Of a stretch of DNA of 64,000 bases, positions 2,298 to 63,700 are shown in pieces. Origin of the DNA: Polyangiales bacterium (lineage in GTDB: Bacteria > Myxococcota_A > Polyangia > Polyangiales > Ga0077539); assembly GCA_041389825.1 (NCBI GenBank), contig JAWKRC010000007.1, forward strand, positions 189,093 to 253,092, read 5' to 3'. The translations under genes were made by a program, and so were the position numbers. Below the pieces are notes generated by a model. It ran no database searches, had not been told where the DNA came from, and was given only the letters and a program-made list of their open reading frames with translations. Every line of letters begins with the position of its first letter. The stretch's first letter is position 1.

Positions 2298-3573
2298 TGA
2301 CGCGCTCTCGGCCGCCGTTGCAGCTCGCGTGGCTGGTGCGCCTACGGTGGGCGGCCATCGCGGCGCAGCTCGCCTCGATCGTGGGCGTGCGCTTCGTCCT
2401 GCACGCGCCCTTCCCCTTCGCGCCCCTGGCGATGGTGGTGGGCGCGCTGGTGGTGGCGAACCTGGTGCTCACGCTCCGCCTGCGGCGCGGGGCGCGGCTC
2501 TCCGACGCGGCCATCGCGGGCAACCTCATCCTCGACTCGGTGGGCCTCACCGCGCTGCTCATCTGGACCGGCGGCGCGATGAACCCTTCACCACGCTCTA
2601 CCTCCTGCACGTCGCGCTCGCGAGGATCATGGTGCCGCGGCGCTGGAGCCTCGCGGTGACGGTGTGCGCCGTGGCCCTCTTCGCGGGGCTGCTGATGGCG
2701 CGGCCCGAGGCCATTCACGTCTGGCACACGCCGGGGATGTTCCTCCTTCACGTGCGCGGGATGTGGCTCGCCTTCGCGCTCACCGCGGGGTGCCTCTGGT
2801 ACTTCATCGACCGGGTCACCACCTCGCTGCGCCGCCGCGAGGAGGAGCTCTCGGCCGAGCGGGTGGAGCGAGAGCGCGCCGCCCGGTGGAACGCCCTGGG
2901 CACCCTCGCCGCGGGCACGGCGCACGAGCTCAACACCCCCATGGGGACCGTGGCGATCCTCGCGTCGGAGCTGAGCGAGCTCCTCCCCGAGGGGAGCGAC
3001 GCCCGCGCGCAGGCCGACCTCATCCGCGCGGAGATCAAGCGCTGCAAGCAGATCCTCGGTCGCATGCGCGCCCACGGGCAGGACGCCGACACCGCCGACC
3101 GGGTCGCCCTCGGCCCCTGGCTCAGCTCCACAGTAGACGGCTGGCGCGCCGCGCACCCCGACGCGACGGTCGCCCTCTCCCTCGACCGCGGCCTCGCCGC
3201 TCGCGAGGTGGCCCTCTTCACCGAGCCCTTGCGTCAGGCGCTGGTGAGCCTCCTCGACAACGCGCGCCTCGCGCTGTCGGGCCGCGCCTCGGCTCTGCCC
3301 ATCGAGGTCACGCTCGCGCGCGGAGACGACCGCGACGCCTTCGAGCTCACGGTCATCGACCACGGCGTCGGCGTGCCGAGCGAGCACCTCCACCGCCTGG
3401 GCGAGCCCTTCTTCACCACGCGCGAGCCCGGGATGGGCATGGGGCTCGGGCTCTTCCTCGTGCAGGCGACGGCGTCGATGCACCGCGGCGCGATGCGCGT
3501 GCGCTCGGGCGAGGGCGAGACGCGGGTCACGCTCACGCTGCGCGGCGTGGGCGGGGGCGCAGAAACGCGCTAA
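2297..3573 (+). CDS. Sensor histidine kinase, RegB/PrrB/ActS family; apparent 1-nt deletion in a C-run near 2586
   Basis: N-terminal TM region ends ...GGAMNP in frame A. Frame B continues FTTLYLLHVAL (conserved RegB NPF motif), then H-box GTAHELNTP, HATPase (GMGMGLGL). Restoring one C joins the halves. Confidence 0.75.
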
Positions 3574-3598
3574 TGCTCCCGCGACGAGACCCGCCATC

Positions 3599-4549
3599 GT
3601 GACCGACGCCGAGCTCCGCTGCCGAGACGAGATCAGTCCCCCCGACGACGGGCGCGAGTCGCGCGCGCTGAAGGTCGCGGCGCTCACGCTGGTGACCATG
3701 GTGGCCGAGCTGGTCGCGGGGTACGCCACGCGCTCCCTCGCGCTCACCGCCGACGGGTGGCACATGGCCACGCACGCAGGCGCCCTCGCGCTCACCGCGG
3801 GGGCCTACTGGTTCGCGCGCACCCGCTCGAAGCGCGGCGCCTTCGCCTTCGGCGGAGGGAAGGTCCACGCCCTCGCGGGCTACACCAACGCGCTGGTGCT
3901 CCTCGCGGTGGCCGTCGAGATGGCCGTCGAGGGGGCGCAGCGGCTGCGCCACCCGCAGCCCATCGCGTACACCGAGGCGCTCGTGGTCGCCGTGCTCGGG
4001 TTGCTGGTGAACCTCGTGAGCGTCGTGTGGCTCACGCCCCCGGGCGAGCACCACCACCACGACCACGACCATCACCACCACGACCCTCACCACGGTCACG
4101 ATCACCACGACCATCACCACCACGGGCGCGACCGCGACGACAACCTGCGCGCGGCGTACCTGCACGTGCTGGCCGACGCGTTCACGAGCGTGCTGGCGAT
4201 CGGGGCGCTGCTGGCGGGGCGCTTCCTGGGCTGGGCCTTCCTCGACCCGGTGAGCGCGCTGGTGGGGAGCGTGATGATCCTGCGGTGGGGCGTCGGGCTG
4301 CTCCGTAGCGCGGGGCGAACCCTCGTCGACTCAGCCCCCGACGACGGCACCCTCGGGCTGATCCGCGAGACCCTCGAGGCGAGCGGGGCGACCGTGGTCG
4401 ACCTCCACGTGTGGGACGCGTCGCCCGGTCACCGCGTGTGCATCGTCGCGGTGCGCGCGACGAGCCCCCGCACCCTCGCGGAGTACCGCGCGGCCCTTCA
4501 GGAGAAGGTCGCGCTCCGCCACGTCACCATCGAGGTCGAGCCCGCGTAG
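3599..4549 (+). CDS. Cation diffusion facilitator (CzcD/ZitB-like) metal efflux protein
   Basis: CDF TM core (HMATHAGALALTAG...), His-rich loop HHHHDHDHHHHDPHHGHDHHDHHHH, C-terminal cytoplasmic domain. Confidence 0.85.
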   Translation: MTDAELRCRDEISPPDDGRESRALKVAALTLVTMVAELVAGYATRSLALTADGWHMATHAGALALTAGAYWFARTRSKRGAFAFGGGKVHALAGYTNALVLLAVAVEMAVEGAQRLRHPQPIAYTEALVVAVLGLLVNLVSVVWLTPPGEHHHHDHDHHHHDPHHGHDHHDHHHHGRDRDDNLRAAYLHVLADAFTSVLAIGALLAGRFLGWAFLDPVSALVGSVMILRWGVGLLRSAGRTLVDSAPDDGTLGLIRETLEASGATVVDLHVWDASPGHRVCIVAVRATSPRTLAEYRAALQEKVALRHVTIEVEPA

Positions 4550-4596
4550 CGAGGGAAGTTCTCGGCCACCCCGCGGCGTTTCGTGTACCGTCCCCG

Positions 4597-5556
4597 ATGC
4601 CTGACGGAGCGACCGCCCCCACCGTGGAACCCGACGCCCTCCTCGCACGCATCCGCGCGGCCCTCTCGGGCGTGATCTCGGGCCGCCCCGACGCGATCGA
4701 GCTCCTCCTCACCGGGGTGCTCTCGGGCGGTCACGTGCTCATCGAAGACGTGCCGGGGGTTGGCAAGACCACCCTCGCCCGCGCCCTCGCGAAGTGCTTC
4801 GACGTGTCGTGCACGCGGGTGCAGTTCACGCCCGACCTCCTGCCGAGCGACATCCTCGGCGCGCAGGTGCTCGACCCCCGCGACGGGAGCTTCGCCTTCC
4901 ACCGCGGGCCGATCTTCACGAGCGTGCTCCTCGCCGACGAGATCAACCGCGCGTCGCCCCGCACGCAGAGCGCGCTCCTCGAGGCGATGAACGAGGGCAG
5001 CGCGACCGTCGACGGCGTGACCCACGCGCTCCCGCGCCCCTTCTTCGTGCTCGCGACGCAGAACCCCATCGAGTCGCAGGGGACGTGGCCGCTGCCCGAC
5101 GCGCAGCTCGACCGCTTCGCCCTGCGCGTGTCGGTGGGCTACCCCTCGCCCGACGCCGAGCTCGCGATGCTCTACGCCCGCCAGCGCGCCGACCCCCTCG
5201 ACCGGGTCGAGTCCTTCGCGACGGGCTCCGACCTCGCGGAGCTGCAGGCCGCGGCGCGCGAGGTCGACGTGAGAGAGCCCGTGGCGCGCTACCTCCTGCG
5301 CGTGGTGACCGCGACGCGCGACCACCCCGAGCTCGCCATGGGGGCCTCTCCGCGCGGGGCGCTGTCGTTCTTTCGCAGCGTGCAGGCCCGGGCGCTCTTG
5401 CAGGGTCGCAAATACGTCACGCCCGACGACGTGCAGGCGCTCGCTGCGCCGGTGCTCGCGCACCGCGTGGCGCTGGCGCCGTCGGCGAAGTACAGCGGCG
5501 CGTCGTCCGACGCGATCGTGCGCGCGCTGGTGGCGGGGGTCGAGGTGCCGGTGTGA
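4597..5556 (+). CDS. MoxR-family AAA+ ATPase
   Basis: Walker A GVPGVGKTTLA, LLADEINRASPRTQSALLEAM, QNPIESQGTWPLPDAQLDRF. ATG at 4597 in frame. Confidence 0.9.
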   Translation: MPDGATAPTVEPDALLARIRAALSGVISGRPDAIELLLTGVLSGGHVLIEDVPGVGKTTLARALAKCFDVSCTRVQFTPDLLPSDILGAQVLDPRDGSFAFHRGPIFTSVLLADEINRASPRTQSALLEAMNEGSATVDGVTHALPRPFFVLATQNPIESQGTWPLPDAQLDRFALRVSVGYPSPDAELAMLYARQRADPLDRVESFATGSDLAELQAAAREVDVREPVARYLLRVVTATRDHPELAMGASPRGALSFFRSVQARALLQGRKYVTPDDVQALAAPVLAHRVALAPSAKYSGASSDAIVRALVAGVEVPV

Positions 5557-6887
5557 GCGCCGTCGCGGAGAGGCTCGGGCGTCTCCGCGATCGGCTGCGT
5601 CAGGTCGACTACGACCGGCTGAACCACATCCTCATCCCGTCGACCAACGCCGAGCGGGAGAGGTGGCGAAAGACCCGCCTCGGGCGCGCGGTGCAGCCCT
5701 TGTTCTGGGTCTTCTACGCGCTCACCCCCGCGGGCCGCGGGTACGCGCTGATGCTCTTCCCCGTGGGGATGTTCGGCCTCGAGATCGAGCGCGCGGACGT
5801 CTACGTGCTGTGGAGCCTCTTGATGGCGGCGGCGGTGGTGTCGGTCGCGGCGCGCAGGGCCTTCGCGATGGAGGGCGTGCGCGTCGAGGTGCGGGCGCCG
5901 GCGCGGGCGGCCATCGACGAGCCCGTGAACTTCACCGTGGAGCTCACCCACGACGGAGACCGGCCGCACGCCGACGTGATGGTCGAGGGCCCCTTCCTCC
6001 CCTGGGACGGCCGCTGGGACGGCGCGCACCCTCGCCTCCCGGTGCTCGCTCCCGGCGCGCGCGTGACGCTCACCGTGACGGGGAGGTTCCGCTCTCGGGG
6101 CGAGCACCACCTCGACCCCTTTCACGTCGGGGCGATGGTGCCGCTGGGCCTGACCTACGGCCCGCTCGTGCGCTCGCGCGGCGTGCGCTTCGTGGTGATC
6201 CCTCGCGCGGCGCGGGTGATCGCCGTCTCGATGCCGCTGCGCCCGCGGCACCAGCCCGGCGGCGCGCCGCAGGCCCTCGCGAGCGGAGACTCCTTCGAGC
6301 TGCGGGGCTTGCGCCCCTACCGCTCGGGCGACCCGGTGCGCGACCTGCACGCGAAGAGCTGGGCGCGCACGGGGGTGCCGGTGGTGCGCGAGTACCAGCA
6401 GGAGCACTTTCGTCGGGCGGCGGTGGTGCTCGACCCCGAGGTGAAGGGCCAGCGCGACGCGGCGGTGCTCGACGCGGCGGTGTCGCTCGCGGCGGGGCTG
6501 GTGTCGTTCCTCTCGCGCGAAGACGCGCTGGTCGACCTGGTGCTGATCGGCGCGCGCGTGCACGAGCTCCACGCGCACGGAGGCCGCGCGCAGGAGGTCC
6601 TCGGCGCCGCGCTCGACCTCCTCGCGTGCGTCGAGCCGGGCGATGCCTTCGACGCCGAGCGGGTGTTGAAGGCGCTCGGTCCCTTCGCGCCGAGGTTGTC
6701 TGCGGCGGTGGTGGTGACCTGCGCGCCGCGCGACGACCACGCGACGGTGGCGGGCCGCCTGCGCGCGCTGGGGGTGGAGTGCAAGGTGGTGGCGATCCAC
6801 CGCGAGGGCGCGAAGCCGTCGGCGCCCGCGGGGGTCACGTCGCTGTCGCACCGCGCGGTGCTCGCGGGCGAGCCCGTGAGCGTGTGA
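5553..6887 (+). CDS. DUF58 (vWA-like) protein, canonical MoxR partner
   Basis: GTG overlaps moxR stop (GTGA). Motif FELRGLRPYRSGDPVRDLHAKSWARTG typical of DUF58. Confidence 0.8.
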   Translation: MSAVAERLGRLRDRLRQVDYDRLNHILIPSTNAERERWRKTRLGRAVQPLFWVFYALTPAGRGYALMLFPVGMFGLEIERADVYVLWSLLMAAAVVSVAARRAFAMEGVRVEVRAPARAAIDEPVNFTVELTHDGDRPHADVMVEGPFLPWDGRWDGAHPRLPVLAPGARVTLTVTGRFRSRGEHHLDPFHVGAMVPLGLTYGPLVRSRGVRFVVIPRAARVIAVSMPLRPRHQPGGAPQALASGDSFELRGLRPYRSGDPVRDLHAKSWARTGVPVVREYQQEHFRRAAVVLDPEVKGQRDAAVLDAAVSLAAGLVSFLSREDALVDLVLIGARVHELHAHGGRAQEVLGAALDLLACVEPGDAFDAERVLKALGPFAPRLSAAVVVTCAPRDDHATVAGRLRALGVECKVVAIHREGAKPSAPAGVTSLSHRAVLAGEPVSV

Positions 6888-6896
6888 AGAGGGCGC

Positions 6897-7583
6897 TCAG
6901 CCGAAGTTCACCGTGAGCTCGCTGCGGCCCTGGAAGAGCTCCCAGAAGCGGTCGGCGATGGCGTTGGGGTCGAGCGTCGCGTGGCCGTTGTCGAAGGCCG
7001 TGCCCTTCACCATGCCGAGCACCACGACCTCGCCGACGTACACGCCGTCGGGCGCGAGCTTCTTCGAGAGCAGGCCCACGGCCTTGTGCTGCGCGGCCTT
7101 GCTGATCGCGAGGCCCATGGAGTTCCACTGCGTCGCCATCGCGTCGACGTTGGGGTCGTAGAAGGCGAAGCCGCCGCCCGTGACGAGGAGCGCGCCCTTC
7201 TGCGACTTCAGGTCCTCGTGCGCGGCCTGCACGGCGGCGATGAGGCCGGTGACGGCGACGTCGAACACGCCGCGCAGGTCGCTCGCGGGCGCGGCGAGGA
7301 GGTCGCCCGCGCCGCCCATGTACGCGTTCCAGTGGAGGACGGCGACGGGGCCGAGCGACGCGCGGACCTCGTTCACCATCGAGCGCACCGCGTCGACGTC
7401 CCCGAGGTCGCACGGGAAGGCCTTGGCGGTGATGCCCTCCTTCGAGAGCGCCGCGGCGGCCGCCGTGAGCCGCTCCGCGTTGCGCGCCACGATGGCGACG
7501 GAGTAGCCCTCGCGGCCGAACCTCCGCGCGACCGCGTCGGAGATGCCCGGCCCATGCCCACACACGATGATGGTCTTCGACAT
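6897..7583 (-). CDS. Short-chain dehydrogenase/reductase (SDR)
   Basis: N-terminal IIVCGHGPGISDAVARRF Rossmann motif, clean 228-aa ORF. Confidence 0.8.
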   Translation of the reverse strand: MSKTIIVCGHGPGISDAVARRFGREGYSVAIVARNAERLTAAAAALSKEGITAKAFPCDLGDVDAVRSMVNEVRASLGPVAVLHWNAYMGGAGDLLAAPASDLRGVFDVAVTGLIAAVQAAHEDLKSQKGALLVTGGGFAFYDPNVDAMATQWNSMGLAISKAAQHKAVGLLSKKLAPDGVYVGEVVVLGMVKGTAFDNGHATLDPNAIADRFWELFQGRSELTVNFG

Positions 7584-7635
7584 GGCGACGGGACTACTCC
7601 CGCGCGCGAGCGAGGGTCAATGGGGCGTCAGGGCG

Positions 7636-8280
7636 TCAGCCCTTCCAGTGCGGGGGCCAGGTCTTGTCGTGGTAGGGGAGCGCGCGCATCCGGTCGCGCC
7701 ACGCGAGCACCGCCTCGGGGATCGCGCCCTGCAGGTCGAGCCCCGGGTGCCGCTGGTCGAAGCGCTCGGCGGTGGCGATGAAGGGGTAGAGCGTGAAGTC
7801 CGCCGCGCCGAGCTCGGGGCCGACGAAGCCCTCGGCGACGAGCTTGTCGTAGCGCGCGACCTCGGCGGCCCAGAGGGTCTTCGCCTCGGCGATCTCGTCG
7901 GCGTCGCGCTTCTCGGGCGGCGTGAAGAACACGCTGCGCGCGACGCGGCCGTGGAGCGGCTGGAGGTAGTTGTCGACCTCGGCGATCACGCGGCGCTGGA
8001 GCGCGCGCTGTTCGAGGTCACCGGGGAAGAGCGGGGGGCCGTCGGTGAAGCGCTCGTCGAGGTACTCGACGATGGCCGCGCTCTCGTAGAGCGTGAAGCC
8101 GTTGTCGTCGATGGCGGGGACCTCGGTGACGGGGTTGATCGCGAGGTACTCGGGCTGCCGGTGCTCCCCGTCGGAGAACGACAGCACCCGCTGCTCGTAG
8201 GGGACGCGCTTGTGCTCCAGCGCGAGCCACACGCGCCAGGCGAACTGCGAACCGGAACCGTAGAAGAACCGCAGCGACAT
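7636..8280 (-). CDS. Glutathione S-transferase
   Basis: MSLRFFYGSGSQFAWRVWLALEHKRVPYE ... LYESAAIVEYLDERF thioredoxin-like N-domain plus GST C-domain. ATG at 8280 in frame. Confidence 0.8.
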   Translation of the reverse strand: MSLRFFYGSGSQFAWRVWLALEHKRVPYEQRVLSFSDGEHRQPEYLAINPVTEVPAIDDNGFTLYESAAIVEYLDERFTDGPPLFPGDLEQRALQRRVIAEVDNYLQPLHGRVARSVFFTPPEKRDADEIAEAKTLWAAEVARYDKLVAEGFVGPELGAADFTLYPFIATAERFDQRHPGLDLQGAIPEAVLAWRDRMRALPYHDKTWPPHWKG

Positions 8281-8369
8281 GGCCGCGGAGGGTACACCCG
8301 CCGAAGTCGCGACGGCTCGACCTCGTTCACCGCGACCGAACGCCGCGCGAGCGCCCGCGCCTCCGCGCG

Positions 8370-9436
8370 CTAGTCGGGCGTACACACGCTGCGCTGGTAC
8401 CGCTGCACGAGGCGATCCCCCGACCATTGAAAGCGCGTGGTGTCCTGGCAGTAGGCCCGGTCGCGAAACCGGAAGTGCTGCCCCGTGACGGTGATCCCGT
8501 CGGGGTCGACCCAGGGTCCCTCTCCGTACGAAGGCCCGCTCTGGGTGTCCCGCGTGATGTCGATGGATTCTCCGTGGCGCCACAGCTCGCGCGCGACGGG
8601 CGCCGTCGGAGAACTCTCGAGGAGAGTCCATGACATCCCCTGCCAGCGCGACCAGTGTCGTTCGTGGGTCGCCTGGAGGAGAACTCGCACGCGCGCGGAG
8701 GTCTCCAGGGGCCGCAGCGCGAGGCGGCAGAAGGCCTCCCCCTCGCGCGTCGGCGTCGGCGCCTCGAAGCGGAAGATGGGCACCGCCACGTCGTGCTCCA
8801 CGCGAAAGCCGTACACCGCGGTGTCCTCCACGACGTTCACGCGCAGGCCGACGAGGACCCGCAGACGCGCGGCGGTCTCGGTGTGCCCTTCGAAAGCCTC
8901 GAGTCGCACGAGGCTCCCGTAGCTCCGTCGTCGCCAGCGCCCTCGGTGTCGAACAGCGGGAGCGGTCCGGCGTCGACGCGCTCGAGCGGCCCCCGAAGTC
9001 GATCCGTCACGCCCTCGCTCGTGGCGACGAACTCCCAGCGCGCCGCCTCGCCCATCACGCGCTCGACCCACGCGCGGGTCTGCGCGCGCATCCGCGCGAA
9101 GAGGCGTTGCCGGTCGACGGGGATGTCCCCGTCGCCGGTGTAGTCGAAGTCGCGGAGCGCCACGCGCGTCGCGGCGATCGCAGCGACCTCGGGCGGCGTG
9201 GGCTCTTCGGGCGCGGGAGTCTCCGTCGGAGGTGCTTCCGCGGGCGCGGGTGGAGGCGACGGGGTCGTGACCGTCGCGACGACCGGCGCCGGGCGAGGCG
9301 TGACGCGGCGCGCGTGCGCGCAGCCGAGAGCGAGCGCGGCGACGAGCGCGAGGCGTGGGCGAAGGTCCACGAGGGTGTGTGCGCGGGGCCGCGACGGAGA
9401 GACGCGAAGCGCGGGCGCCGCGAGAGTGGTGCTCAT
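8370..9436 (-). CDS. Lipoprotein with Pro-rich linker; two frames suggest a frameshift near 8930
   Basis: Frame 1 starts with signal LALVAALALGCAHA, a PAPEEPTPPE linker, then a domain. Frame 2 carries a conserved-looking C-terminal domain ending ...QRYQRSVCTPD. Confidence 0.35.
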
Positions 9437-9475
9437 GAGCGAGCGCGCATCGCAGCGCGCGTGCCGATCCCGTCG

Positions 9476-9907
9476 CTAGAGCAGCGCCGAGCACACCCCG
9501 CCGAGCGGCACCGCCGACGGAATCTCGACGGTGACCGTGTGCGTCCCGTCGGTCACCGTGTACCGCCCCGCGGGGAGCGGCGGCGTCTCACACCCCACCT
9601 CGGGCTTTGAGCACACGGGCGGCGGAGTGGTGCGGCAGTACGCGTCGACCACGACCGTGCCGCGAATCGTGAACGCGTCACCTTCCCGCGTGAGCGAACA
9701 CTCCCGCGAGACGAGCGTGTCGCAGGCGGGGCGGCACGACGACGTCATGATGATCCTCACCGGACGGTCGACCTCGAAGCGCGGCGCGTTCACGTCCGCT
9801 TCCACAGGCCTCACGCACACCCGCGTCAGTGGAACCTCCTCGCGCACCGGCCCGCACCCCGCCAGCGCGAACGCCAGCGCCACCCATCCCCTCCGCACGG
9901 AAAGCAT
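9476..9907 (-). CDS. Cysteine-rich small lipoprotein
   Basis: MLSVRRGWVALAFALAGCGP lipobox; 10 Cys in 143 aa. Confidence 0.5.
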   Translation of the reverse strand: MLSVRRGWVALAFALAGCGPVREEVPLTRVCVRPVEADVNAPRFEVDRPVRIIMTSSCRPACDTLVSRECSLTREGDAFTIRGTVVVDAYCRTTPPPVCSKPEVGCETPPLPAGRYTVTDGTHTVTVEIPSAVPLGGVCSALL

Positions 9908-9966
9908 CTCGACACGCTACACCGTCCCCTTGCCCTCGACGCGCGTTCGCGCCTTCACTCGCGCGC

Positions 9967-10693
9967 GTGCGTTCCGCCCTCGTCTTCGTCCTCGCGCTCG
10001 GGTGCGCCCACGCGCACACCGCTGTCGCCCCTTCCACCGGGCCCGTGTCGCTCTCGCCCCTCGTCGAGAACGTCTACGTCCACACCTCGTGGGGCACCGT
10101 GTCGAGCGGGACCTACCCCGCCAACGGACTCCTCGTCTGCGAGCCCGACGCCGGACTCCTCGTCGACACGCCCTGGACCAACGCGCAGACCGATCAGCTC
10201 CTCGCCATCGCGCAGCAGCGCGGGTGCCCCGTGCGCGCGCTGGTTGTCACGCACTTCCACGACGACCGCATGGGCGGGATCGACACCGTGCTGCGCCACG
10301 GCATCGCGACCTGGGCGACGCAGGCCACCGTCGACCTCGCGCATCGCGAGGGGTGGCGACCACGCATCCTCGACTCGCCCGGCGTCGTCCGCATCGGAGG
10401 CAGCGCCGCGGAGGTCTTTTTCCCCGGTGAGGCGCACACCCGCGACAACGTGGTCGTGTGGCTCGACGCGACGCGCGTGCTCTTCGGCGGCTGCATGATC
10501 CGCGCGGCCGCGGGCGACTCGCTCGGCAACACCGCCGACGGGGAACGTCGCCGCCTACGCCGCGAGCGTGCAGGCGGTGATCGACCGCTACCCCTCCGCC
10601 GAACGGGTGGTGCCGGGGCACGGCGACGCGGGCGGACCCACGCTCCTCACGCACACGCTCACCCTCGCCCGTAGCGCGCGACCCGCGGACTGA
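9967..10693 (+). CDS. Subclass B1 metallo-beta-lactamase-like protein; apparent 1-nt insertion in a G-run near 10545
   Basis: Signal/lipobox VFVLALGCAHA. HFHDDRMGG (VIM has HFHDDRVGG). FGGCMIRA (Cys221 region). After GNTADG the conserved tail NVAAYAASVQAVIDRYPSAERVVPGHGDAGGPTLLTHTL sits in the +1 frame. Confidence 0.75.
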
Positions 10694-10806
10694 GCGACGT
10701 CGAAATCGCGACTCCACCGTCGCTCCGCGCGGGTGGGTGCTCTCCCCACCGCGATCACGGGAGCCCCACGGTTTCACGCGTCGCGGCCCGTACTACCATC
10801 GCCGCC

Positions 10807-12587: not shown

Positions 12588-12667
12588 GAGACGGCCGCGG
12601 CCTGCCGCCCGCGATTCGCCTCCCGACGGGTCGACCCGGCCCCCTCGGCGCGCTACCCCGCGCCGCC

Positions 12668-13684: not shown

Positions 13685-13744
13685 GCGCACACCGCTCCTC
13701 GGGACGCGCCTCGCCCCTCGCGGCGTTCTCCGCTCGCTCGCACC

Positions 13745-19574: not shown

Positions 19575-19579
19575 CCGCG

Positions 19580-51010: not shown

Positions 51011-51092
51011 CGCGCGCGCGAATGCGGGTATACGGCCGAGGACGCCGGAGCTGGAGGACGAGCGTAGCGAGGCCGCCGCCTGCGTTGGGACC

Positions 51093-52642: not shown

Positions 52643-52655
52643 CTCGATCCGAACC

Positions 52656-54186: not shown

Positions 54187-55144
54187 ATGTCCTCCGCCGA
54201 CTCTCCGGTGTTCGACTGGAACAGCTCGACGAGCGACCCCCACCGCGCCGCGATCCTCGAGGCGTACTTCGCGCTCTTCCGCGAGCGAGACCCCGACGAC
54301 CATCGGCTCGGCGAGACGCGCTGGTTCCGCGAGCGAGGTCACAACGCGCTCCTCGAGTCGCTCATCCGCACGGTGTCGCCGCGGCAGGAGTGCCTCGCCG
54401 CGGCGAAGGACGCCCCTCCAACGAGAGCCGCTTCGGCCGCCACCGACTCCCCCCTTGTCTCCCGTGCGCGCGCAACATCCCTGCTCGCAAGTCGCCGCGC
54501 AGGTAGCCTCCGTGGTGTTGCCCGCGCCGGTCGAGCGCGAGTTGTACCAGATCGCTCGGGAGCATCACCGCGATGACCCTGAGGGCGTGTCGGTCCCGCT
54601 CATCGTCGACTGGATGGGGCGTCATCCCGCGCGTGATGTTCCCCAGCAGCCTCGGCGGCCGCTATGGCAAGACAGGCGGGCGCCGGAGCTGCTGTACAGG
54701 GCGCCTGCGCTCACGCCGAGAGCACGATGCGCATGGCCGCCCTGCGCCTCGACACCGAGGGCGCGGGTCCACGTGGCCCGCGCGGTGTGGAGGCAGGTCA
54801 CCGACGCGGTCGACAAGGTCGACGACGAGGTGATCGCGTACACGGACATGTTCGATCAGCCCTACTACACGAAGAAGTACGCGCACGCGGCCCCCATCGG
54901 GCGGCTGGGCAACCGCCTGCTGGCGGGCACCTACTTCGGGCTGACCACGGTGGCGCTGCCCGGCGGACCGACGCTCGAGGCGCACCTCTCCTGGCACAAG
55001 CCCGCGGCGCCCCTTCGCGACGCGCTCGAAGACCTGTTGATGGACGACGACGACCGCATGGCGTGGTGGCACGCGCACGTGCGGCTCCACATCCTGGACC
55101 GAGGCGCCAACGGCGACGCGGTGCTGCGTTGGCTGTGGAGTTGA
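54187..55144 (+). pseudogene. Hypothetical conserved-looking protein split over 3 or more frames
   Basis: Coherent segments MSSADSPVFDWNSS...RWFRERGHNALLESL, ELYQIAREHHRDDPEGVSVPLIVDWMGRHPARDV and VIAYTDMFDQPYYTKKYAHAAPIGRLGNRLLAGTYFGL lie in different frames. Confidence 0.3.
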
Positions 55145-56592
55145 GGTGCCGCGCATCGACCATCGGTCGAGGCGACGCCGAGCTGTGGCGCCTGGGCTCC
55201 GACCGCGCGCAACGCGCAGGCTGCTCCTGATCGTGCGCCCCGACACGCGCCTCGACGGCGACGCCGACGACGGCCCCTGGGAGGTGATCGTCCTCGCCGA
55301 CCCCGACGACGCGGGATCGACGCGGGGGATCCGGTTCCGCAGCGCGGTCCTGATCGAGGGCGACGCGCTCGCGTCGCTCAACGCGCAGTACAAGTCGCGC
55401 TGGCCGTCGATGGAACAGATCAAGGCGCTCGTGTCGCGCGGCTTCGGGCGCAACCGCACGCGTCGCCGGAGCTCACCACGAGTCGCGGCACCGACGTCAG
55501 GTCCTGCGTCTGACCGAACGCGAACAGGTCTCCGTGAAGCGCTCGCGGCGCTCGACGCCGAGCCCCCGTCGGGCGAGGGCCTTGAAGATCATCGCCACGG
55601 CGAAGAAGGTCCGCCGGCGCGCGCGCGCGGGAGCACGTCGAGCAGACCGCGCCGCGAAAGCACGCGCGTGTAGAGGGCGGCACCGAGCGGCTCGGCAAGT
55701 GGCTGCATCTGCTCGTTCACAACGCCCCGGCCCTGGGCCTGGCGACGAGCGAGGACGCGGCGGTGCGCGCGATGGAGCCCACCACTGTCTTCGAGCTGCT
55801 GCTGGGAAGGTCGGCACTCACCTGGGTCGAGACAGCCGCCTCACGATGCGGGTCGACGCGCTCGATGGCGCGGACGATCGTCGACGACAGACCGCACTCA
55901 TCGAGGTCTTCAACAAGCTCGGGCTGGCGGTGCTGCGGCCGAGACGTGGTGATCCGGACGCACGAACGGGCTCAGGCACATGCCGCGTGACGGTATTCGG
56001 GCGAGATGCGGATCCCCTGCTAACTCACGAGCAGTACACGCGCTCGGTTCGGACGTGCGCCGGACCGGGCCCTCCGAGCGTCCGACGCGCGAACGGCCCG
56101 CAGACCGTTCCCCCGCCGCGCTGGGGTGTTCCCCATCACGTTCGAGCGCCTCCTCCGACCCACTCGGAGTGCTCCGCCAGGGTCCGCGGACCCCAGGTTG
56201 GGCACTTTCTGCCGCTGCGACGGTCCACAGACCCCCGCGAGGGCACCCAAAGACACCCACCACAGAGTCCGAGGAGCCTCCGCCTGCACCGAGGTGCCCC
56301 CGACCTCCCCGCACCCCAGCCGAGGCACCCTCACTGCGTTGCCAGGGTGCGGCCACCCCCGTGCGAGCACCTCGCTGCAAGGACGTGAGCGGCCGAGCGA
56401 CGCCCGCACATCACGGAGGGCGGCGCGCGAGCGCGCCTGCTCGTCACGAAGCGTCATATCCCGCTCGGCGTGCTGCTTCGGGTTGTTTCGCCGCGGGCGT
56501 CGGCGCTCTAGTGCGTGGCCCGCACCGCGTCGACGCTCGCGACGGCCGATAGCGGCGGGTGGCGCCCGACGCCCTGAGGCGTCAGCGCCCGG

Positions 56593-56988
56593 TCACTTCA
56601 GCCGCGTGGTGAAGACCTCGGCGAGCACGGCGCACGCGTCGACGGAGGTGAAGACCCCGACGACGTGGTCGTTCTGCGTGACGATCACCGCGCCGTACTT
56701 GTGCTCGGCCATCTCGGCCGCGACCTGGTCGATCGGGGTGTCCGGCGAGGTGGTGTAGCATCGTCATCGCCTCCTCGACGGTGACCACCGGGTCGATCGT
56801 CCTTGGAGGGTCTCGATGAGGGCGACGTCGCGGGTCGAGGATGCCTACGAGCTTGCCCCCATGGAGCACCGGTGACGGATGCGGTGTTCGTGCATCACCC
56901 GCGACGCGGCCGCGATGAATTGCCTGTCGCCGATGGTCACCGGCGAGGTCGTCATGTACTTGCTGGATCGGGGGATGGGCTTGCTCAT
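56593..56988 (-). pseudogene. CBS-domain pair protein, 4 or more frameshifts
   Basis: gggagaggac RBS. MSKPIPRSSKYMTTSPVTIGDRQFIAAASRVMHEHRIRH, GKLVGIL / STRDVALIETLQ, IDPVVTVEEAMTMLHH and IDQVAAEMAEHKYGAVIVTQNDHVVGVFTSVDACAVL are in different frames. Confidence 0.55.
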
Positions 56989-57049
56989 GTGGGGTCCTCT
57001 CCCAGCGCGGCGCCGGTGCGCGGCGTTCGCGGAGAGACCCAGTGCGCAG

Positions 57050-57658
57050 AAAGCGTGCCTGGCGGATTCTGGCCGGGTAAAGCGCCGAAGAGAGCCTGCC
57101 GCGCGTGGAGCAGCGCTTCGCGCACGACGCACGCGGTTCGCGCGCTCAGTACGGGCGCGTGTGCGCCAGAACTGGCCGGCAAGTTCCTGCAGGGTCGCAG
57201 CTCGGCGGCGTTGTTGCGCGGGCCGCCGTTCACCACGTCGAGGCACACGCGCGGGCCGCGGAACTGCGTCGGGAGGCGGACGAAGCCGCGCGGCCCCGGC
57301 GTCATGCGCCAGAGCTGGCCCGAGCGGTCTTCGCAGGGGCGGAGCTCGACGGCGTTGTTGCGCGGGCCGCCGTTCACCACGTCGAGGCACATCCCTGCAC
57401 CGCGGAACTCCGTGGTCAGCCGCACGAAGCCGCCCGCCGCGGGCCGAACCGTCCACGCCTGACCCGTCACGCCCTCGCAGGGCCGCAGCTCGGCCGCGTT
57501 GTTCGTGGGCCCGCCGTTCACCACGTCGAGGCACATCCCCGGCCCGCGGAAGTCCGTCGAGAACCGCAGCGCCCCTCGCGCTCGCGCCGCGGCCCAGCCG
57601 CTCACCGACGCCACCGCCACGAACGCGCCGAGCGCGGCCCACTCGCTGATCGCTTCAT
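57050..57658 (-). pseudogene. Secreted ricin-B (beta-trefoil) lectin, three QxW repeats, frameshifted at both ends
   Basis: Repeat FRGPGMCLDVVNGGPxNNAAELRPC...GQxW three times. Third QxW (GQFWR) and signal peptide start (MKR / ISEWAALGAFVAVAS) are out of frame. Confidence 0.5.
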
Positions 57659-57770
57659 GACCGAGCGCTCTACCCGAACGCCTCGCGTGAGGTCCACCCT
57701 CTCCCCTTGCGGGGTCGTCGCTTCGTCACCACTCTCCGGCCCTCTCGTTCACCGGAGGCGGTTTCACCCC

Positions 57771-58289
57771 ATGTCGATCTACGAAGACAAGTCGTCCCCC
57801 CGGATGACCCAGGCGCTCACCAACCTCGAGGGCTGGCTCGACCTCGCCGTCGAGTACGCCGAGGCGCGCAGCCCGGACTCCCGCGGTGCTCCTCACCGCG
57901 CGGCTCTACCCCGACCAGTACGCGCTGGTGCGGCAGGTCCAGGCCGCGTGCGACCAGGCCAAGGGCGCCGCCGCGCGCCTCGCGGGCCAGGAGCCGCCGA
58001 AGCACCCCGACACCGAGACCACCCTCGACGAGCTCCGCGCCCGCATCGCGACCGTGAAGACCTTCCTCGCGGGCTTCACGCCTACTCGACTTCGAGACCG
58101 CGGCGACGCGGGTGATCCCGCTGCCCTTCCTCCAGGGCCAGGGATGCTCGCGACCGACTACGTCCGCCAGGATGGCCCTGCCGAACTTCTATTTCCACCT
58201 TCGTGCACGCCTACGCGATCCTGCGCCACAACGGCGTGCCGCTCGGCAAGGTGCCCTTCATCGGCGCGCCCAACCTCCGCCCGCTCTGA
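57771..58289 (+). pseudogene. DUF1993-family protein, 4 or more frameshifts
   Basis: MSIYEDKSSPRMTQALTNLEGWLD, VLLTARLYPDQYALVRQVQAACDQAKGAAARLAG, MLATDYVRQ, MALPNFYFHL and VHAYAILRHNGVPLGKVPFIGAPNLRPL are in alternating frames. Confidence 0.55.
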
Positions 58290-58290
58290 C

Positions 58291-58931
58291 TCAGCGGGCA
58301 GCGCGCCGAGCGCTCCCGCTCCGCCACGAAGCGCCGCATCGCGCTCGTCCACCGGATCGTTCATCGCCGCCTCGCTGAGCTGGTACACCGCGGTCAGCCG
58401 AGGCGCTCCTGCGTCGCCCGCCGCGAACCTGAAGCGGTAGCTCGGCGCGTACTCCATCCCCGCGATCACGCACTCCGTCCCTCGCAGGCGTGGCCCTCCA
58501 TCGCGCGGCTCTGCTGCGCGCGGCCACGAGCACCGCGACGAGCTCCTGGTCATCGCCCGCAGCCGCACCGCACACGCGCTGCCCGCTGCGACGGATGCCC
58601 GTGCGCCCGTCGGGGGTCGCCTCGAGGTAGCGCACGAGGAGCACGCCCCCCTCGCGGTCGATCAGCTCTCCCACGCTCGACGCCGCGAGGATCGCGCGCA
58701 TCGCGGCCTCCACCGGGCTCGCCGCGGGGACGTCCGTCGCCGACCCCGCGTCGGTCACGCCCGTCGCCGCGTCGACGCGCTCGCCGAGCTGCGCGGGGCC
58801 TCGTCGGGCCAGGCGCCGCGCGCCCTGCGTCGATGCTCGCGGGCGCGGTGGGCCCCGGGGCTTCGCGGGCGCGGGCGGAGCCTCGCGGCGGTGACACGCG
58901 GAGACGAGGAGCGCGATGGGGGCGAGTCGCA
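58291..58931 (-). CDS. Lipoprotein (ends uncertain, probably frameshifted)
   Basis: MRLAPIALLVSAC lipobox immediately after the KptA stop. Confidence 0.3.
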
Positions 58932-58946
58932 TGACGCCTCGGATGC

Positions 58947-59593
58947 TCACGCCGGCTCCCTGAACGCGTAGAGGGCGCGCAGCTCGGCCTCGGCCGCCTG
59001 CCCCGCGCGCGTGCACACGCTCAGCCCGACGATGGCCGCGCGCGGCACCTCCTCGCGAGGAGCACCCTGCCAGCGCGCGGAAGAGCGCGAGACCTGCGTC
59101 GCGCAGCGCCTTCGGAGAGACCTCCAGCAGCACGTCGACCCTCGCGCGCTTGCCCACCGTCGCGTCGACCGCGGGCGCGAGGTGGACGTGCGTGCGCTCT
59201 CCCCGATGGATGCCCTCGGCGGCGATGGCGCGTGCCGCGTCGACGCTCGTCCTGTGGAAGACCGGCGCGTCGTCGGTGACGACGGCCCACGTCGCTTCGA
59301 GGCCCTCCTGCGTCACGGGCGTGCCCGCGAGCGAGTGGCCCTGGACAAGCCCGCACCCGGCCGTCGTCGGTGAGCTCGTAGCGCGACTTGTTGTTCTCCG
59401 CGACCACGGCCTCCAGCTCGTCGTGGGTCATGCGGAGCCGCGCGCGAGGACATCGTCGACCTCGCGAAGCCGCATGGGCGTCCATCGCGAGGCCCGAGCC
59501 GCGCGCCGCGTGGCGGAGCAGCTTCGAGAGCCGGGTGGCTCTGCGCGTGAGGTCGTCTCCATGGTGGCCGCGGACTCTACGCGCCGCGCCCAT
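58947..59593 (-). pseudogene. RNA 2'-phosphotransferase KptA/Tpt1, 3 or more frameshifts
   Basis: RLSKLLRHAARGSGLAMDAHA, THDELEAVVAENNKSRYELTDDGRVRA, ERTHVHLAPAVDATVGKRARVDVLLEVSPKALRDAGLALFRA and tail EEVPRAAIVGLSV are in different frames. Confidence 0.5.
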
Positions 59594-59614
59594 ACGGGTG
59601 TAGACCCGTCGGCC

Positions 59615-60221
59615 ATGACCGCCCCGCTCGACCCCGCCGCCGCCGAGGTGCTCGTCGCCTGGTTCGGCACCACCGCGCTCGAAGGCCCCATCGACCCCGA
59701 GGTGACCAGGCGCTGGTTCGCCACCGACCCCGCCTTCGACGAGAGCCTCCGCGCGCGCTTCGAGCCGCTTCGTCGCGCAGGCCGCGAGGGGCGACAGCGC
59801 GTGAGGACTCCCCGCGGGCGCCCTCGCCGTGGTGATCCTCCTCGACCAGTTCACGCGCAACCTCTACCGCGACGACCCCCGCGCCTTCGACGCCGACCCC
59901 GTCGCGAGGGGCGTCGCGACCCGCGCCATCGACCGCGGCTTCGACAAGGCCGTCTCGCTGCAGCCGCGCTCGTTCTTCTACCTCCCCTACGAGCACGCCG
60001 AAGACCGCGACCTTGCAGGCGCGCGCGGTGGCGCTCTTTCAGGCGATGGTCGACGGCGCGGCGCCCGACGAAGCCCAATGGCCGAGTACCTGCTCTCGTA
60101 CGCGGTGCGGCACCAGGTGGTGGTCGACCGCTTCGGGCGCTTCCCGCACCGCAACAAGGTGCTCGGCCGCGAGAGCACTCCCGCCGAGCGGGAGCACCTC
60201 GACGCGGGCAAGACCTTCTGA
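59615..60221 (+). pseudogene. DUF924-family protein, 4 or more frameshifts and one in-frame TGA
   Basis: WFGTTALEGPIDPEVTRRWFATDPAFDESLRARFEPL, ILLDQFTRNLYRDDPRAFDAD, PYEHAEDRDL, QARAVALFQAMVDGAAP and YLLSYAVRHQVVVDRFGRFPHRNKVLGRESTPAE. Confidence 0.55.
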
Positions 60222-61817
60222 TGCGCGCGCGCTCCCTCCTTCGCAGCGCTGCTCCTCGGCTGCCCATCGTCGGCGACGCGCTCTCCGACCGCGCCGGTCG
60301 CGCGCACCGCGACGCCCGAGCTCGACGCGATGGAGCGCGAGTTCGAGGCGTTGATGTCCGAGCACTCCCTCGCGGAGTGGCACGAGTACACGGGCGAAGG
60401 GACTCCTGCCCGAGGGCGGCATCGCGGGCCTTGCAGACCCGCGAGCGGGCGCTCTTCCAGCGGGCGAGCGAGACCGTGGCCGAGCTCCTCCGACGCGACG
60501 GTGTCGACCCCGAGACGCGCCGCCGCGCGCACCTCTGGCGCCGCGGGATCGAGGGCCTCGCGCTCCTCGGCGACCCCGAGTGCACCGCGCTGGTGGAGCG
60601 CTACGAGCACGCGCTCAACGCGCACACCTTCACGCGCGACGGCCGCGCCCTCAACCGCTCGGACCTGCAGCGGATGTCGCGCTCGGCCGACCCCGCCGAG
60701 CGCCGCGCCGCGTGGGACCTCACCGCGCTCCACCGCGACGTGGCCCCGATCGCGCGAGACCTCCTGCGCCGCCGCGCGGCCGTGGCGCGCGCGATGGGGA
60801 GCACCTCGTGGGGCGACCGGATGCTCTCGCTCCGCGGGATCGAGCCCGCGCAGTGGAGCGCCCTCGCGCGCGACCTCGCGACGCGCACCGACGAGGCCTG
60901 GCACACGGTGCTCACCGAGGGCGCCCAGGCGCGACGCCTCGACCGCGTGCGCCCGTGGGACCTCGACTTCGCGCTCCAGCGCGAGGGCGCCGTGGCCGAC
61001 GCGCGCCTCCCCGCCGACACCGCGGTGGACCGCGCGCGGCGCATCCTCACGGGCTGGGGCTTCGACCTCGACCACCCGCCGGTGCGCGTCGTGGTGAGGG
61101 AGTTCTCCTTCGGCGGGCAGACGCTCTCGATCCGCGTGCTCACCGACGTGCGCACGGTGGTGCGGCCGAAGGCGGGCGCGGAGTTCCTCCGCACGCTGAT
61201 GCACGAGCTCGGGCACGCGCTGCAGGCGACGCGCACGGCGACGCCGTACCCCATCGCGCGCGGCTACGAGTGGGTGCCGGGGCTCACGGCGCTGGCCGAC
61301 GAGGTATGGCCGAGGTGTCGGCGCTGCTGGTCGACGACGACGCGGTGCTCGCGCGCTACACCGACTCACGCCCGACGAGCGCCGCTCGGTGCTCGACGAG
61401 GCCCGGCGGCATCGAGCTGGCCTCGCTGCGGTCGCTGCTCGCGCAGGTGGCCTTCGAGCGCGCGGCCCTCGACGACCCCGAGCAGGACCTCGACGCGCTC
61501 CAGCGACGCATCGACCACGAGCCGCGCGGCGTGGAGTTCCCCGACGACGCGCCGCCGACGGTGGGCGGCGACGCCCTTCCTCGCGACTCACTCCTGTCTA
61601 CAGGCAGAGCTACGTGATCGCGGCGGCCGTCGCGGCGCAGGTGCACGCGGCGCTGCGCGAGCGCTTCGGCGAGCGGTGGCTGTCGCCCGAGGCGGGTCGC
61701 TTCCTCACCGAGACGCTCTACGCGCCGGGCGAGATGGTCCCGTGGACGGAGAGGCTGTCGCGCGCGACGGGTCGCCCGCTCGACACCGACGCCCTCGTGG
61801 CGCGGCTGGTGCGGTAG
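60221..61817 (+). pseudogene. Zinc metallopeptidase (HEXXH, M3/M2-like) lipoprotein, 5 or more frameshifts
   Basis: MRARSLLRSAA-LLGC lipobox, MEREFEALMSEHSLAEWHEYTGEG, FLRTLMHELGHALQ, and C-terminal segments in two further frames. Confidence 0.5.
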
Positions 61818-61845
61818 CGGCCGCTAGGGGTGTTCGCGTCGCGCG

Positions 61846-63700
61846 ATGACCGAGCCCGGAACGTCGGCCCCTCACCCACTGATCGCGGTCCACGGCAGCG
61901 CCGTCCGCGCGCTGGACCCCACCACGGGGAACATCCTCTGGGAGTACCGGGCCAGCGTCGTCATCGCCCGCTTCGCGCTCGCCCACGACCGCGTCTACGC
62001 CGTCGACGACCTGAGCAACCTCCACTGCCTCGTCGCCACCACCGGCGCCCACGTCGGTACGGTGCAGATCGATCGCCTCGCGAGAACTTCGCGCGCGCGA
62101 TGTCGCCGACGGCGACTGGCTGATGCCGACCAACTACTGTGCCGTCGCACGATACCGGTGATTCGGCGACGTGATACGGAGGTTGCACACCGCGTGCGCA
62201 TTTGGGCTCGCACCTGTCGCGCAAGCTCGACTTTTATGGACCTGGAGCCTTTGCCGCCGGCCGCCTTCTGCCGTCGGTTTTCGGCAAACCTTCTCGCGAC
62301 TCGGGCGTCTGAGCCCGCAGCCGTCATGCGCAACGCCCTCCCGTGGCGGGCGCGCTGGCGCCTTCGCCCTCGGCGCCTGCGGCCGTCACGCGGCGGAGAC
62401 GCACCGCCGCGCCCTGCGTCCGCAACCCGAGCTCACCGCCGAGGCCCTGCTGCCGCCGCGCGAGGCCGCATCACCCGTCGCGGGCGCGCTGCCGCCGGTC
62501 GCGCACCCCAACGCCGACGCGCGCGACGAGGCCTCGGCCAGCGCGTGAGCGCGCGACCCTTGCCCATCCCGCGGCTCGGGCTCGGCCGCTCGGCCACCTT
62601 CACCTTCGACGGCGGACGTCTCCGTGCCGGGCCCTTCAGCTCCGAGCAGCAGCTCATCACCCCGCCTACGCGCACGGCAAGGTCTTCGTCGGCGCGGGCT
62701 TCGCGAGCACCACGGTGTACGCCCTCGACGCCCACACCGGCGCGCTGAAATGGCAGGCCGGACACGCCCGACGGAGGCCCCACCGGCGCCATCGTCGAGG
62801 ACGGCGAGGTGCTCTTCAACACCGAGAGCGTACCTCTTCGCCTTCGACGTCCGCACGGACGCCAGCGCTGGTCGCGCTACCGGCGACCCGCTGATGTCCG
62901 CGCCTGCCGCCGCGAACGGGCACGCCTTCATCGCGTGCCCGACGGGGACTCCCCACGGGCTTCTCCTTCGCGCGCTCCGGATGCGCGACGGCGTGGTCGC
63001 CTGGCACCAATCTCCTGGTGCCCGCTTCTATGATGACCGCGCCCGTGATCGCTTCTGGCGACGCCGTCTACCTCACGTCGATGAACGGCGTCGTGCAGCG
63101 ATGGAACGCACGAAACGGATTGTCGTGTGGTCGCGCGACCTCGGCCACCAGCGCGCCCGCCGTCGACGGTGAGCGCGTCTACGTCGCCCAGCGCGCGCCT
63201 GGGGCCGCGAGCGGCAGGCCGCCCTCGACGCGGGTACCCGGCGCCACCGTCTCGCGCGGAGCGCTTCCACGCGCGGCCTACACGCGGCAGCGGCCCGACA
63301 CGGGCGGCACCGAGGCGGGGTGGGCCTGGGAGGGCTCGCGCCCGGCCTTCGCCGACGGCAGGGTCTACACCGCGATGGGCGACGCCGTGGTGGCGCGCGA
63401 CGCGGCCACGGGCGCCGAGGTGTGGCGCAAGCGCAACCCGCTCGGGGGGAGCGTGCGCGGCGTGACCTCCCCCGCGGTGGTGGGCTCGCAGCTCGTGGTG
63501 GGCACGCGCGGCGGAGACGTCTTCGGCCTCGACATCGACACCGGCGAGACCACCTGGGCGTGGCGCGTGGGAGAGCCGATCCTGTTCCAGCCCGCGGTGG
63601 CCGAGGGGTGGGTCTACGTCGCGACCCAGCGCGGCAAGGTCGTCGGCTTCGAGGTCGGCGACGCCTCCGTCGACGGCTGGCACATGTGGGGCGGCAACGC
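61846..63700 (+). pseudogene. PQQ-repeat (BamB-like) beta-propeller protein, multiple frameshifts; may continue into the VIT domain
   Basis: Repeated DPTTGNILWEY..., YAVDDLSNLHCLVATTGAHV, GDPLMSAPAAANGHAFIACPTG, RDAATGAEVWRK and IDTGETTWAW blades spread over all three frames. Confidence 0.45.

Follow-up and report, generated by a model that had tools for sequence, protein, structure and literature searches.

The window, a stretch of DNA analysed at its full length of 64 kb, carries many frameshifts of one or two bases, which interrupt conserved genes of the deposited sequence (Table 1). We put at about 90% the probability that these frameshifts are consensus errors of the deposited assembly, the organism itself being free of the mutations. 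The existence of the indels, the intactness of the orthologues, the indel-only character of the damage and its strongly heterogeneous density, with one sharp edge, are observed directly; the error origin we infer from assembled sequences. A sequence-only reading of this DNA had described conserved genes riddled with frameshifts, a description with which orthologue alignments, Pfam rejoining and a codon-usage Viterbi analysis all agree.

Source record and relatives

The deposited protein MEZ4405988.1, a 313-aa stub of a RegB-type histidine kinase, is 100% identical to the window and lies on a 307,118-bp contig of the MAG 'Polyangiales bacterium'. This contig also encodes five more proteins of the window (MEZ4405992.1 to MEZ4406008.1), together with a 182-aa call of the RegA-like regulator (MEZ4405986.1). 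Relatives used for comparison were ~95%-identical contigs from SRR11928969, a set of Illumina NovaSeq data (PMC9723585), and a relative of 85–90% identity; GCA_023428035.1/ERZ28594556 was also used. Among scanned genome contigs there was a single close relative; the others were distant, with matching gene order over only 16–22 kb. Logan DRR438469 contains the same species, at 98.4% identity over 919 nt, on a contig that ends before any indel site.

Table 1. Frameshifted genes and dense belts in the window (positions count from the first base of the window).
Feature	Position	Strand	Lesion	Basis or remark
RegB-type histidine kinase	2584–2587	+	1-base deletion, ~codon 97 of 425	blastn gaps against L001 and L002
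Metallo-beta-lactamase-fold (MBL) gene	10540–10543	+	1-base insertion	G4, against G3 in the 95% relative
PLD-like gene	11100–11101	+	1-base deletion	outside a homopolymer
Cys-rich/IgGFc_binding gene	18325–18326	+	2-base deletion	GC lost from a (GC)n run
Polysaccharide deacetylase	22935–22940	+	apparent 1-base insertion (CC)	three-frame reading; a single C restores ...ELDRRNIPATFF...
TPR protein	25120–25150	-	probable single frameshift (~25140)	codon-usage Viterbi, three-frame view
GT-C-like membrane protein	29455–29465	-	probable loss of one base close to the 3' end (~29462)	codon-usage and stop-codon logic
MobA	45017–45026	+	G10 tract	frame kept with G9
Hemerythrin-like gene (extra site)	47340–47355	+	probable 1-base deletion	three-frame view
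Large protein without Pfam family, 48077–51041 (extra site)	49518–49528	+	probable frameshift	
Dense belt 1	37960–39920	-		SLAC1/TDT transporter and Rieske-type protein
Dense belt 2	49400–63300		40 intrinsic frame-change candidates (2.9/kb)	
Ser/Thr kinase domain (belt 2)	51312–51726	+	8 indels within 415 nt, of which 6 are deletions and 2 insertions	
CBS-domain protein (belt 2)	56440–56860	-	alternates between two frames with at least 4 shifts	three-frame translations read by eye
Ricin-type lectin (belt 2)	57100–57650	-	three repeats in one frame, shifts at either end	Pfam, three-frame reading
DUF1993 protein (belt 2)	57771–58287	+	5 shifts, comprising 4 apparent insertions and 1 deletion	
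KptA/Tpt1 RNA 2'-phosphotransferase (belt 2)	58950–59562	-	5–6 shifts	
DUF924-like protein (belt 2)	59617–60220	+	at least 3 frame pieces	read by eye
M3-like HEXXH peptidase (belt 2)	60330–61800	+	at least 4 frame pieces	Pfam, Viterbi, three-frame reading
PQQ-like beta-propeller protein (belt 2)	61846–64000	+	several frame pieces to ~62950, then clean	

Isolated frameshifts in conserved genes

Eight isolated sites had been listed in the sequence-only reading. Four of these are confirmed base by base against intact orthologues, two are supported by Pfam matches, and the remaining two, in the TPR and GT-C-like genes, are probable frameshifts by codon-usage and stop-codon logic. At the RegB site the window has three Cs, against four in both covering relatives (~94% and ~88% identical), and the RegB orthologues (P0001, P0002) are intact proteins of 425 aa. 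The MBL orthologue (L027) is likewise intact at 241 aa, and joining the two frames in the window extended the MBL Pfam match from positions 4–161 to 4–196 of 196. Orthologues of the PLD-like protein (587 and 594 aa) and of the Cys-rich/IgGFc_binding protein (623–636 aa; 623 aa in L028) are also intact, and tblastn matches of the latter (L003, L009) ran through contiguous query coordinates across two frames. All four genes are present in a single frame and intact in the independent short-read assemblies SRR11928969 and GCA_023428035.1/ERZ28594556, and every core gene that is broken in the window and covered by the SRR11928969 contigs is intact there. This comparison of orthologues covers four isolated core-gene sites outside the dense belts.

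For the deacetylase, with its shift at ~22937, joining the frames raised the Pfam score from 59.7 bits (profile positions 31–110) to 90 bits (2–110 of 124), and for MobA it extended the profile coverage from 3–147 to 3–153 of 160. The upstream frame of the TPR gene remains open for 297 nt beyond the junction, and the shifted frame of the GT-C-like gene runs into a stop just before the following methyltransferase-GT2 gene begins. Three further probable frameshifts were absent from the earlier list. In the hemerythrin-like gene (~47345), the first frame matches the 127-position Pfam Hemerythrin profile only as far as position 85; in the large protein at 48077–51041, the upstream frame stays open for another 1464 nt past ~49523; and the third site lies at ~8926.

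Two belts of dense frameshifts

The two dense belts proposed at 38.0–39.9 and 49.4–63.3 kb were recovered (Table 1). At a looser setting of the codon-usage Viterbi analysis their densities of frame-change candidates are 4.4 and 2.9 per kb, whereas the remaining window has 0.63 per kb.

In belt 1, the SLAC1/TDT transporter (from ~39040 to 38000) and the Rieske-type protein (from ~39915 to 39330) each fall into five or more frame pieces, and a single frame of the transporter matches only positions 2–154 of the 331-position SLAC1 profile in Pfam. The 70-aa gene between the two is intact. The edge of this belt at ~39.92 kb is sharp, the shredded Rieske gene adjoining a clean 4Fe-4S gene (39917–40628) of the same cluster.

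The candidate total for belt 2 is an undercount, the kinase domain by itself having eight indels. A frameshift-aware dynamic-programming alignment of this domain against four homologues (P0122, P0123, P0124 and P0126) placed the shifts at 51312, 51356, 51388, 51516, 51590, 51663, 51694 and 51708/51726 and gave a rejoined protein with all catalytic motifs intact and no stops. Its Pfam Pkinase match rose from fragments of 37 and 34 bits to 138 bits on rejoining (positions 2–249 of 263). The shredded stretch is 68–69% identical to its best homologues, and its frameshift-free flanks are 60–75% and 51–54% identical; GC3 in the stretch is 0.88. Rejoining also raised the DUF1993 match from 70.6 bits (31–108) to 156.8 bits (4–160 of 161), and joined two KptA fragments in different frames (9–80 and 78–169) into one match of 100.8 bits (8–168 of 177). 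The CBS, ricin lectin, DUF924, HEXXH peptidase and PQQ proteins are each legible across two or three frames. Shifted-frame fragments without homology had been named as an outcome that would speak against the sequence-only reading; the fragments do match homologues or Pfam families. A Pfam search of all three forward frames of 52–56 kb gave no match.

Indels, substitutions and selection

Over ~18.9 kb aligned with the 95% relative, the window differs by four frame-breaking indels in gene interiors and ~990 substitutions, the comparison with a close relative that the sequence-only reading had suggested. In the control, two short-read relatives aligned with each other over 18.7 kb, no frame-breaking gene-interior indel was found. 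A strict setting of the Viterbi analysis gave 31 candidates in the 64-kb window and 1 in ~111 kb of loci from ten relatives, eight of these ten control loci having short-read-style contig names. Two candidates were rejected as false positives: that at 22354 falls within the Gly-rich SSB tail, in which relatives differ by 3n indels only, and that at 35154 is a gene start.

The damage had been described as indel-only, with no substitution decay, and the aligned genes bear this out. No in-frame stop was found in them, except for one alignment-dependent stop in the final codons of the MBL gene. The dN/dS values downstream of the shifts (0.18–0.30) were similar to those of the upstream parts and of intact neighbours (0.03–0.29), in pairwise comparisons at 5–15% divergence that are insensitive to frameshifts of very recent origin. 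The aligned genes and rejoined domains were thus examined for the marks of relaxed selection, namely higher dN/dS, nonsense mutations and loss of conserved motifs, and these were absent.

Uneven consensus quality as the probable cause

Neutral decay cannot yield the observed pattern of indel-only damage, unchanged constraint, undiminished similarity of the shredded kinase stretch and a sharp belt edge, and the local density of indels lies far beyond what it could produce in the absence of substitutions. Uneven consensus quality of an error-prone assembly can yield it. The homologous fragments, intact orthologues, dN/dS values and indel density support the earlier preference for sequencing or assembly error over ancient pseudogenes. 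Watson and Warr (2019) reportedly described indel errors of this kind in long-read assemblies, and the window resembles such assemblies in having one- and two-base indels that split conserved genes, enriched in homopolymers both short and long, and truncated calls (RegB with 313 aa, against 425 aa). Frameshift errors in the consensus are well described for nanopore MAGs, and are worse at low coverage (PMC9262707; PMC8103633). Error-prone long reads are the most likely technology behind the assembly, to judge from the 307-kb contig and the error pattern.

Homopolymers had been named as one possible source of the errors, and this holds in part: several sites are short G/C runs and one is G10, but the deletion at 11101, the GC dinucleotide repeat at 18326 and an inserted A at ~58084 do not fit. 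Natural indels also prefer short runs and repeats, so the sequence context has no power to discriminate between errors and mutations.

A uniform error model would give a weaker contrast than that between ~0.2 indels/kb in the aligned stretches and 10–20/kb in the belts. The two belts require a local cause, which we infer to be coverage or polishing. The contigs of the MAG would most likely have been assembled from error-prone long reads, with a good yet imperfect consensus over most of the window (about one 1–2-base indel per 5 kb, as judged in stretches alignable to relatives). At 37.96–39.92 kb and ~49.4–63.3 kb, the consensus would apparently derive from very few reads or be unpolished, with an indel rate of up to about one per 50–100 bases, and the genes underlying the shredded calls would remain intact.

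A batch effect was not established in the assembly GCA_041389885.1, whose protein accessions precede those of the source by ~13,500, its candidates including gene-start false positives and an IS5-family programmed frameshift.

Alternative explanations

In a mixed case, most indels would be errors and a few of the isolated ones real, with the mobA G10 tract possibly slippage-prone and phase-variable. Slipped-strand mutation is known to occur at long G tracts, no homopolymer in the window is longer than G10, and loss of one G would restore the mobA frame; mobA thus resembles phase-variable contingency loci in having a coding-sequence tract whose length sets the frame. Unlike such loci, it is a housekeeping cofactor gene with one tract only, and MobA lies outside the typical phase-variable gene classes. 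Long homopolymers are, moreover, classic sites of length errors in long reads (PMC9262707), and we consider the mixed case unlikely. Exact look-ups of window proteins found no second sequence spanning the tract.

A second alternative is that the indels are real and chromosomal, left in very recent pseudogenes when selection was suddenly relaxed, such as in a newly host-restricted lineage or in decaying accessory islands. Broken copies in the window beside intact orthologues are also what real pseudogenes look like. Belt 2 could be accessory DNA, as the collections searched held no close orthologue of its kinase (best 63%) or its HEXXH gene (25%), and two insertions in the window have no counterpart in relatives. 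In JGI metagenomes the HEXXH gene has relatives at ~25% identity only, none of them close. However, none of the ~60 or more disruptions is a nonsense mutation, and dN/dS is not raised downstream of the shifts. Neutral decay yields several substitutions per indel, yet the kinase has accumulated its eight indels without loss of similarity or catalytic motifs. In belt 1, the shredded Rieske gene lies directly beside genes of its own redox cluster that are clean. Furthermore, breaks occur in 4 of the ~17 core genes that were aligned with relatives, in a bacterium of a free-living type with a large genome.

Genomes in reductive evolution, such as those of Mycobacterium leprae, Sodalis glossinidius and Shigella, are alike in having many conserved genes interrupted relative to intact orthologues. 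In those genomes frameshifts are accompanied by nonsense mutations, IS insertions, larger deletions and higher dN/dS, and a gene usually bears only one lesion or a few; the window, in contrast, has indel-only damage, unchanged dN/dS and up to eight lesions in 415 nt. We regard recent pseudogenes as very improbable. There is a similarly slim chance that at least part of the damage is real and marks an uncultured Polyangiales lineage in very early, indel-driven gene inactivation, or a slippage-prone mutator. If so, regulatory and cofactor genes (RegB, MobA G10) would carry real frameshifts and the two belts would be freshly inactivated.

Programmed recoding, by ribosomal frameshifting or transcriptional slippage, could restore frames in vivo, and programmed frameshifts do occur in nature, as in the IS5-family transposase of a related MAG (locus L016). 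It is effectively refuted, however, by orthologues in which one frame suffices for the same proteins, and the shifts go in both directions, lack a common slippery motif and reach eight per domain, far above any known recoding.

Consequences for annotation

With consensus error as the preferred reading, the meaning of these frameshifts is a practical one, an annotation warning for the record, with no new biology. The ORF track had been said to under-report intact genes, and the gene track of this record does so for about a dozen isolated genes and nearly all genes of the two belts (~16 kb in total). Affected genes are split, truncated (as in RegB, called a 'HAMP domain' stub of 313 aa) or, probably, marked as pseudogenes. 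Until the frames are corrected, pseudogene counts, completeness estimates, pathway reconstructions and protein families derived from this MAG will be distorted.

Source of the window and relatives used for comparison

The RegB-type kinase, after its frames were rejoined across the frameshift, matched with 100% identity a 313-aa NCBI protein (MEZ4405988.1, 'MAG: HAMP domain-containing sensor histidine kinase [Polyangiales bacterium]') encoded on a 307,118-bp contig. This contig also carries five more proteins of the window (MEZ4405992.1 to MEZ4406008.1, one with the locus tag R3A52_05980) and the RegA-like regulator (a 182-aa call, MEZ4405986.1). The window thus comes from a metagenome-assembled genome (MAG). 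In the NCBI annotation of RegB, the gene caller retained only the part downstream of the frameshift. The MAG is absent from the GTDB species representatives, where the nearest genome is only ~88-90% identical, and this absence would fit the MAG having failed quality filters. The representatives do include a genome from the same accession batch.

The G+C content of the window is 73%, and long ORFs crowd all six frames; coding frames were therefore placed by third-position GC and a codon-usage Viterbi, and then tested by homology. The window contained no tRNA genes and no Rfam match at the gathering score.

Orthologous DNA came from three contig sets. The SRR11928969 Logan contigs (L001, L027 and L028; Illumina NovaSeq PE150, urine-fed bioreactor, PMC9723585) are 93.6-95% identical to the window at the nucleotide level and span 1113-8301, 9929-12588 and 13696-22638. 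Contigs of GCA_023428035.1 and ERZ28594556 (L002, L003, L014 and L015), with MEGAHIT-style names, are 85-90% identical. Of the fuller relatives, the closest is the one from the urine-fed bioreactor, a nitrifying one. A 919-nt Logan contig from DRR438469 (L029) is 98.4% identical to the window without gaps, ending short of all indel sites, and is therefore assigned to the same species, which is thus present in an independent public run. A protein on a Logan contig from SRR29765722 (L030) shares a 90%-identity cluster with the RegA-like regulator, and a close relative is therefore present in that run.

Isolated frameshifts

Comparison of the window with its relatives revealed exactly four frame-breaking indels within genes, in RegB and in the MBL-fold, PLD-like and Cys-rich/IgGFc_binding genes, all of which are intact in the relatives. 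By tblastn, the relatives' ORFs jumped frame at 2584 and 18324 with uninterrupted query coordinates. The remaining intragenic gaps were multiples of three, or ±1 pairs cancelling within a few bases. A comparison between the two short-read relatives served as a control: across 18.7 kb, frame-breaking indels occurred at extreme gene ends only, with none in gene interiors.

These four are among the eight isolated frameshifts proposed by the sequence-only reading. Of the other four, those in the deacetylase and MobA are supported by three-frame reading and Pfam coverage, and those in TPR and GT-C are probable from codon usage and stop positions. The observation that frameshifts affect conserved genes is confirmed and in parts understated, as one domain has eight shifts and three extra probable sites were located.

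Frameshifts located in the window, with their basis or the Pfam match before and after rejoining of frames
Gene or domain	Position	Change	Basis or match
RegB	2584-2587	C3 in window vs C4	425 aa encoded by both relatives spanning the site
Additional probable shift	~8926		
MBL-fold gene	10543	G4 in window vs G3	241 aa in L027
PLD-like gene	11101	one base absent	587-594 aa in relatives
Cys-rich/IgGFc_binding gene	18326	'GC' lost from GC repeat	623-636 aa in relatives
Deacetylase	~22937		three-frame reading; longer Pfam coverage after joining frames
TPR	~25140		codon usage; stop-codon placement
GT-C-like	~29462		codon usage; stop-codon placement
MobA	45017-45026	G10	three-frame reading; longer Pfam coverage after joining frames
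Hemerythrin, additional probable shift	~47345		
Additional probable shift	~49523		
Ser/Thr kinase (Pkinase)	51312-51726	six deletions, two insertions	two fragments, 37 and 34 bits; rejoined, 138 bits, profile 2-249 of 263
DUF1993		5 shifts	71 bits, profile 31-108; rejoined, 157 bits, profile 4-160 of 161
KptA		5-6 shifts	two frames, 40 and 27 bits; rejoined, 101 bits, profile 8-168 of 177

The G10 tract in MobA is the longest homopolymer of the window, and with G9 the gene would be back in frame; either the tract length was miscalled or the tract may be genuine and prone to slippage.

Dense belts

Frameshifts are concentrated in two belts. In belt 1 (37.96-39.92 kb), the SLAC1/TDT transporter and the Rieske protein are each in at least five pieces, and the 4Fe-4S gene adjoining the Rieske gene at 39917 and the molybdopterin oxidoreductase genes farther on are clean. 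In belt 2 (~49.4-63.3 kb), frameshift-aware alignment of the kinase with four homologues gave the same eight events with each. For the kinase, DUF1993 and KptA, in which multiple frame switches had been read, rejoining improved the Pfam matches, and three-frame translations of the CBS, ricin lectin, DUF924, M3-like HEXXH peptidase and PQQ genes, also named by the sequence-only reading, were readable over two or three frames. An intrinsic frame-change caller at a loose setting, which makes too few calls in the belts and too many elsewhere, gave 4.4 candidates per kb in belt 1, 2.9 in belt 2 and 0.63 in the rest of the window. For the kinase and HEXXH gene of belt 2, the collections searched yielded no close orthologue, so this belt may be strain-variable DNA with lower metagenome coverage, which would fit an origin of the shifts in error.

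Origin of the frameshifts

Genuine pseudogenes would be expected to show decay beyond the indels themselves. The dN/dS downstream of each shift (window vs relatives) was 0.18-0.30, compared with 0.03-0.29 for intact neighbours, and was indistinguishable from that of the upstream parts and those neighbours, a test with power to exclude old frameshifts only. Aligned codons contained no in-frame stops, except for one within an alignment-dependent stretch at the extreme end of the MBL gene.

Neutral decay leaves several substitutions per indel. In the kinase, where eight indels fall within 415 nt, tens of substitutions and stop codons would therefore be expected. These were not seen: the shredded stretch is 68-69% identical to its best homologues (clean N-terminal flank, 60-75%; C-terminal flank, 51-54%) and has a GC3 of 0.88 in the corrected frame, and the kinase retains the G-loop, VAIK, HRD, DFG and GTPQYMSPE (APE-type) motifs. 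From one gene to its neighbour within a single redox cluster, the number of frameshifts rises abruptly from 0 to >5. Such a step is difficult to attribute to selection and readily attributed to altered consensus quality.

In nanopore MAGs, indel-dominated consensus errors split genes, and do so more severely at low coverage (PMC9262707; PMC8103633). The contexts of the indels are mixed (several in short G/C runs or G10, a GC repeat at 18326, no repeat at 11101, an inserted A at ~58084) and not diagnostic. The unchanged dN/dS, near-absence of stops, preserved kinase similarity and motifs, and sharp belt edge support the earlier interpretation, and we put the probability at about nine in ten that the frameshifts stem from errors in sequencing or assembly and do not mark pseudogenes. 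The frameshift pattern is most probably not a biological feature; in practice it yields a set of positions that need correction, and caution on the annotation of this MAG.

A related MAG shows that intrinsic frame-change callers also flag genuine recoding sites. In GCA_041389885.1 (L016, 1745-2517, minus strand), an IS5-family transposase lies in two frames with a junction at GGGGGGAAAAGGGGGG, and looks like a natural programmed frameshift.

Other loci in the window

Two segments, 8303-9929 and 12588-13695, are missing from all three relatives compared (L002, L014 and L027), in which GST is directly followed by MBL, and PLD by TgpA. Both are coding-like by codon usage, the first with the probable frameshift listed in the table, and no Pfam family was found for either.

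A gene of ~600 aa at 54100-55950 (+) is spread over three frames (MSSADSPVFDW..., ...YYTKKYAHAAPIGRLGN..., ...HILDRGANGD...) and gave no Pfam match in any of them; it possibly encodes a mobile-element protein. G+C falls to 0.675 at 52-54 kb. The ricin-type lectin (57162-57568) contains three tandem repeats with 78-86% DNA identity, the sole internal repeats in the window.

The cluster at 39917-45150 is largely intact and encodes a 4Fe-4S protein, a molybdopterin oxidoreductase, an unknown gene, a nitrate-reductase-associated protein (PF09655) and MobA, with the Rieske protein downstream. The window and its relatives differ, through 3n indels, in the length of a His/Asp-rich loop at 4050-4140 (HHHHDHDHHHHDPHHGHDHHDHHHH) in the gene following RegB, a natural in-frame length polymorphism.
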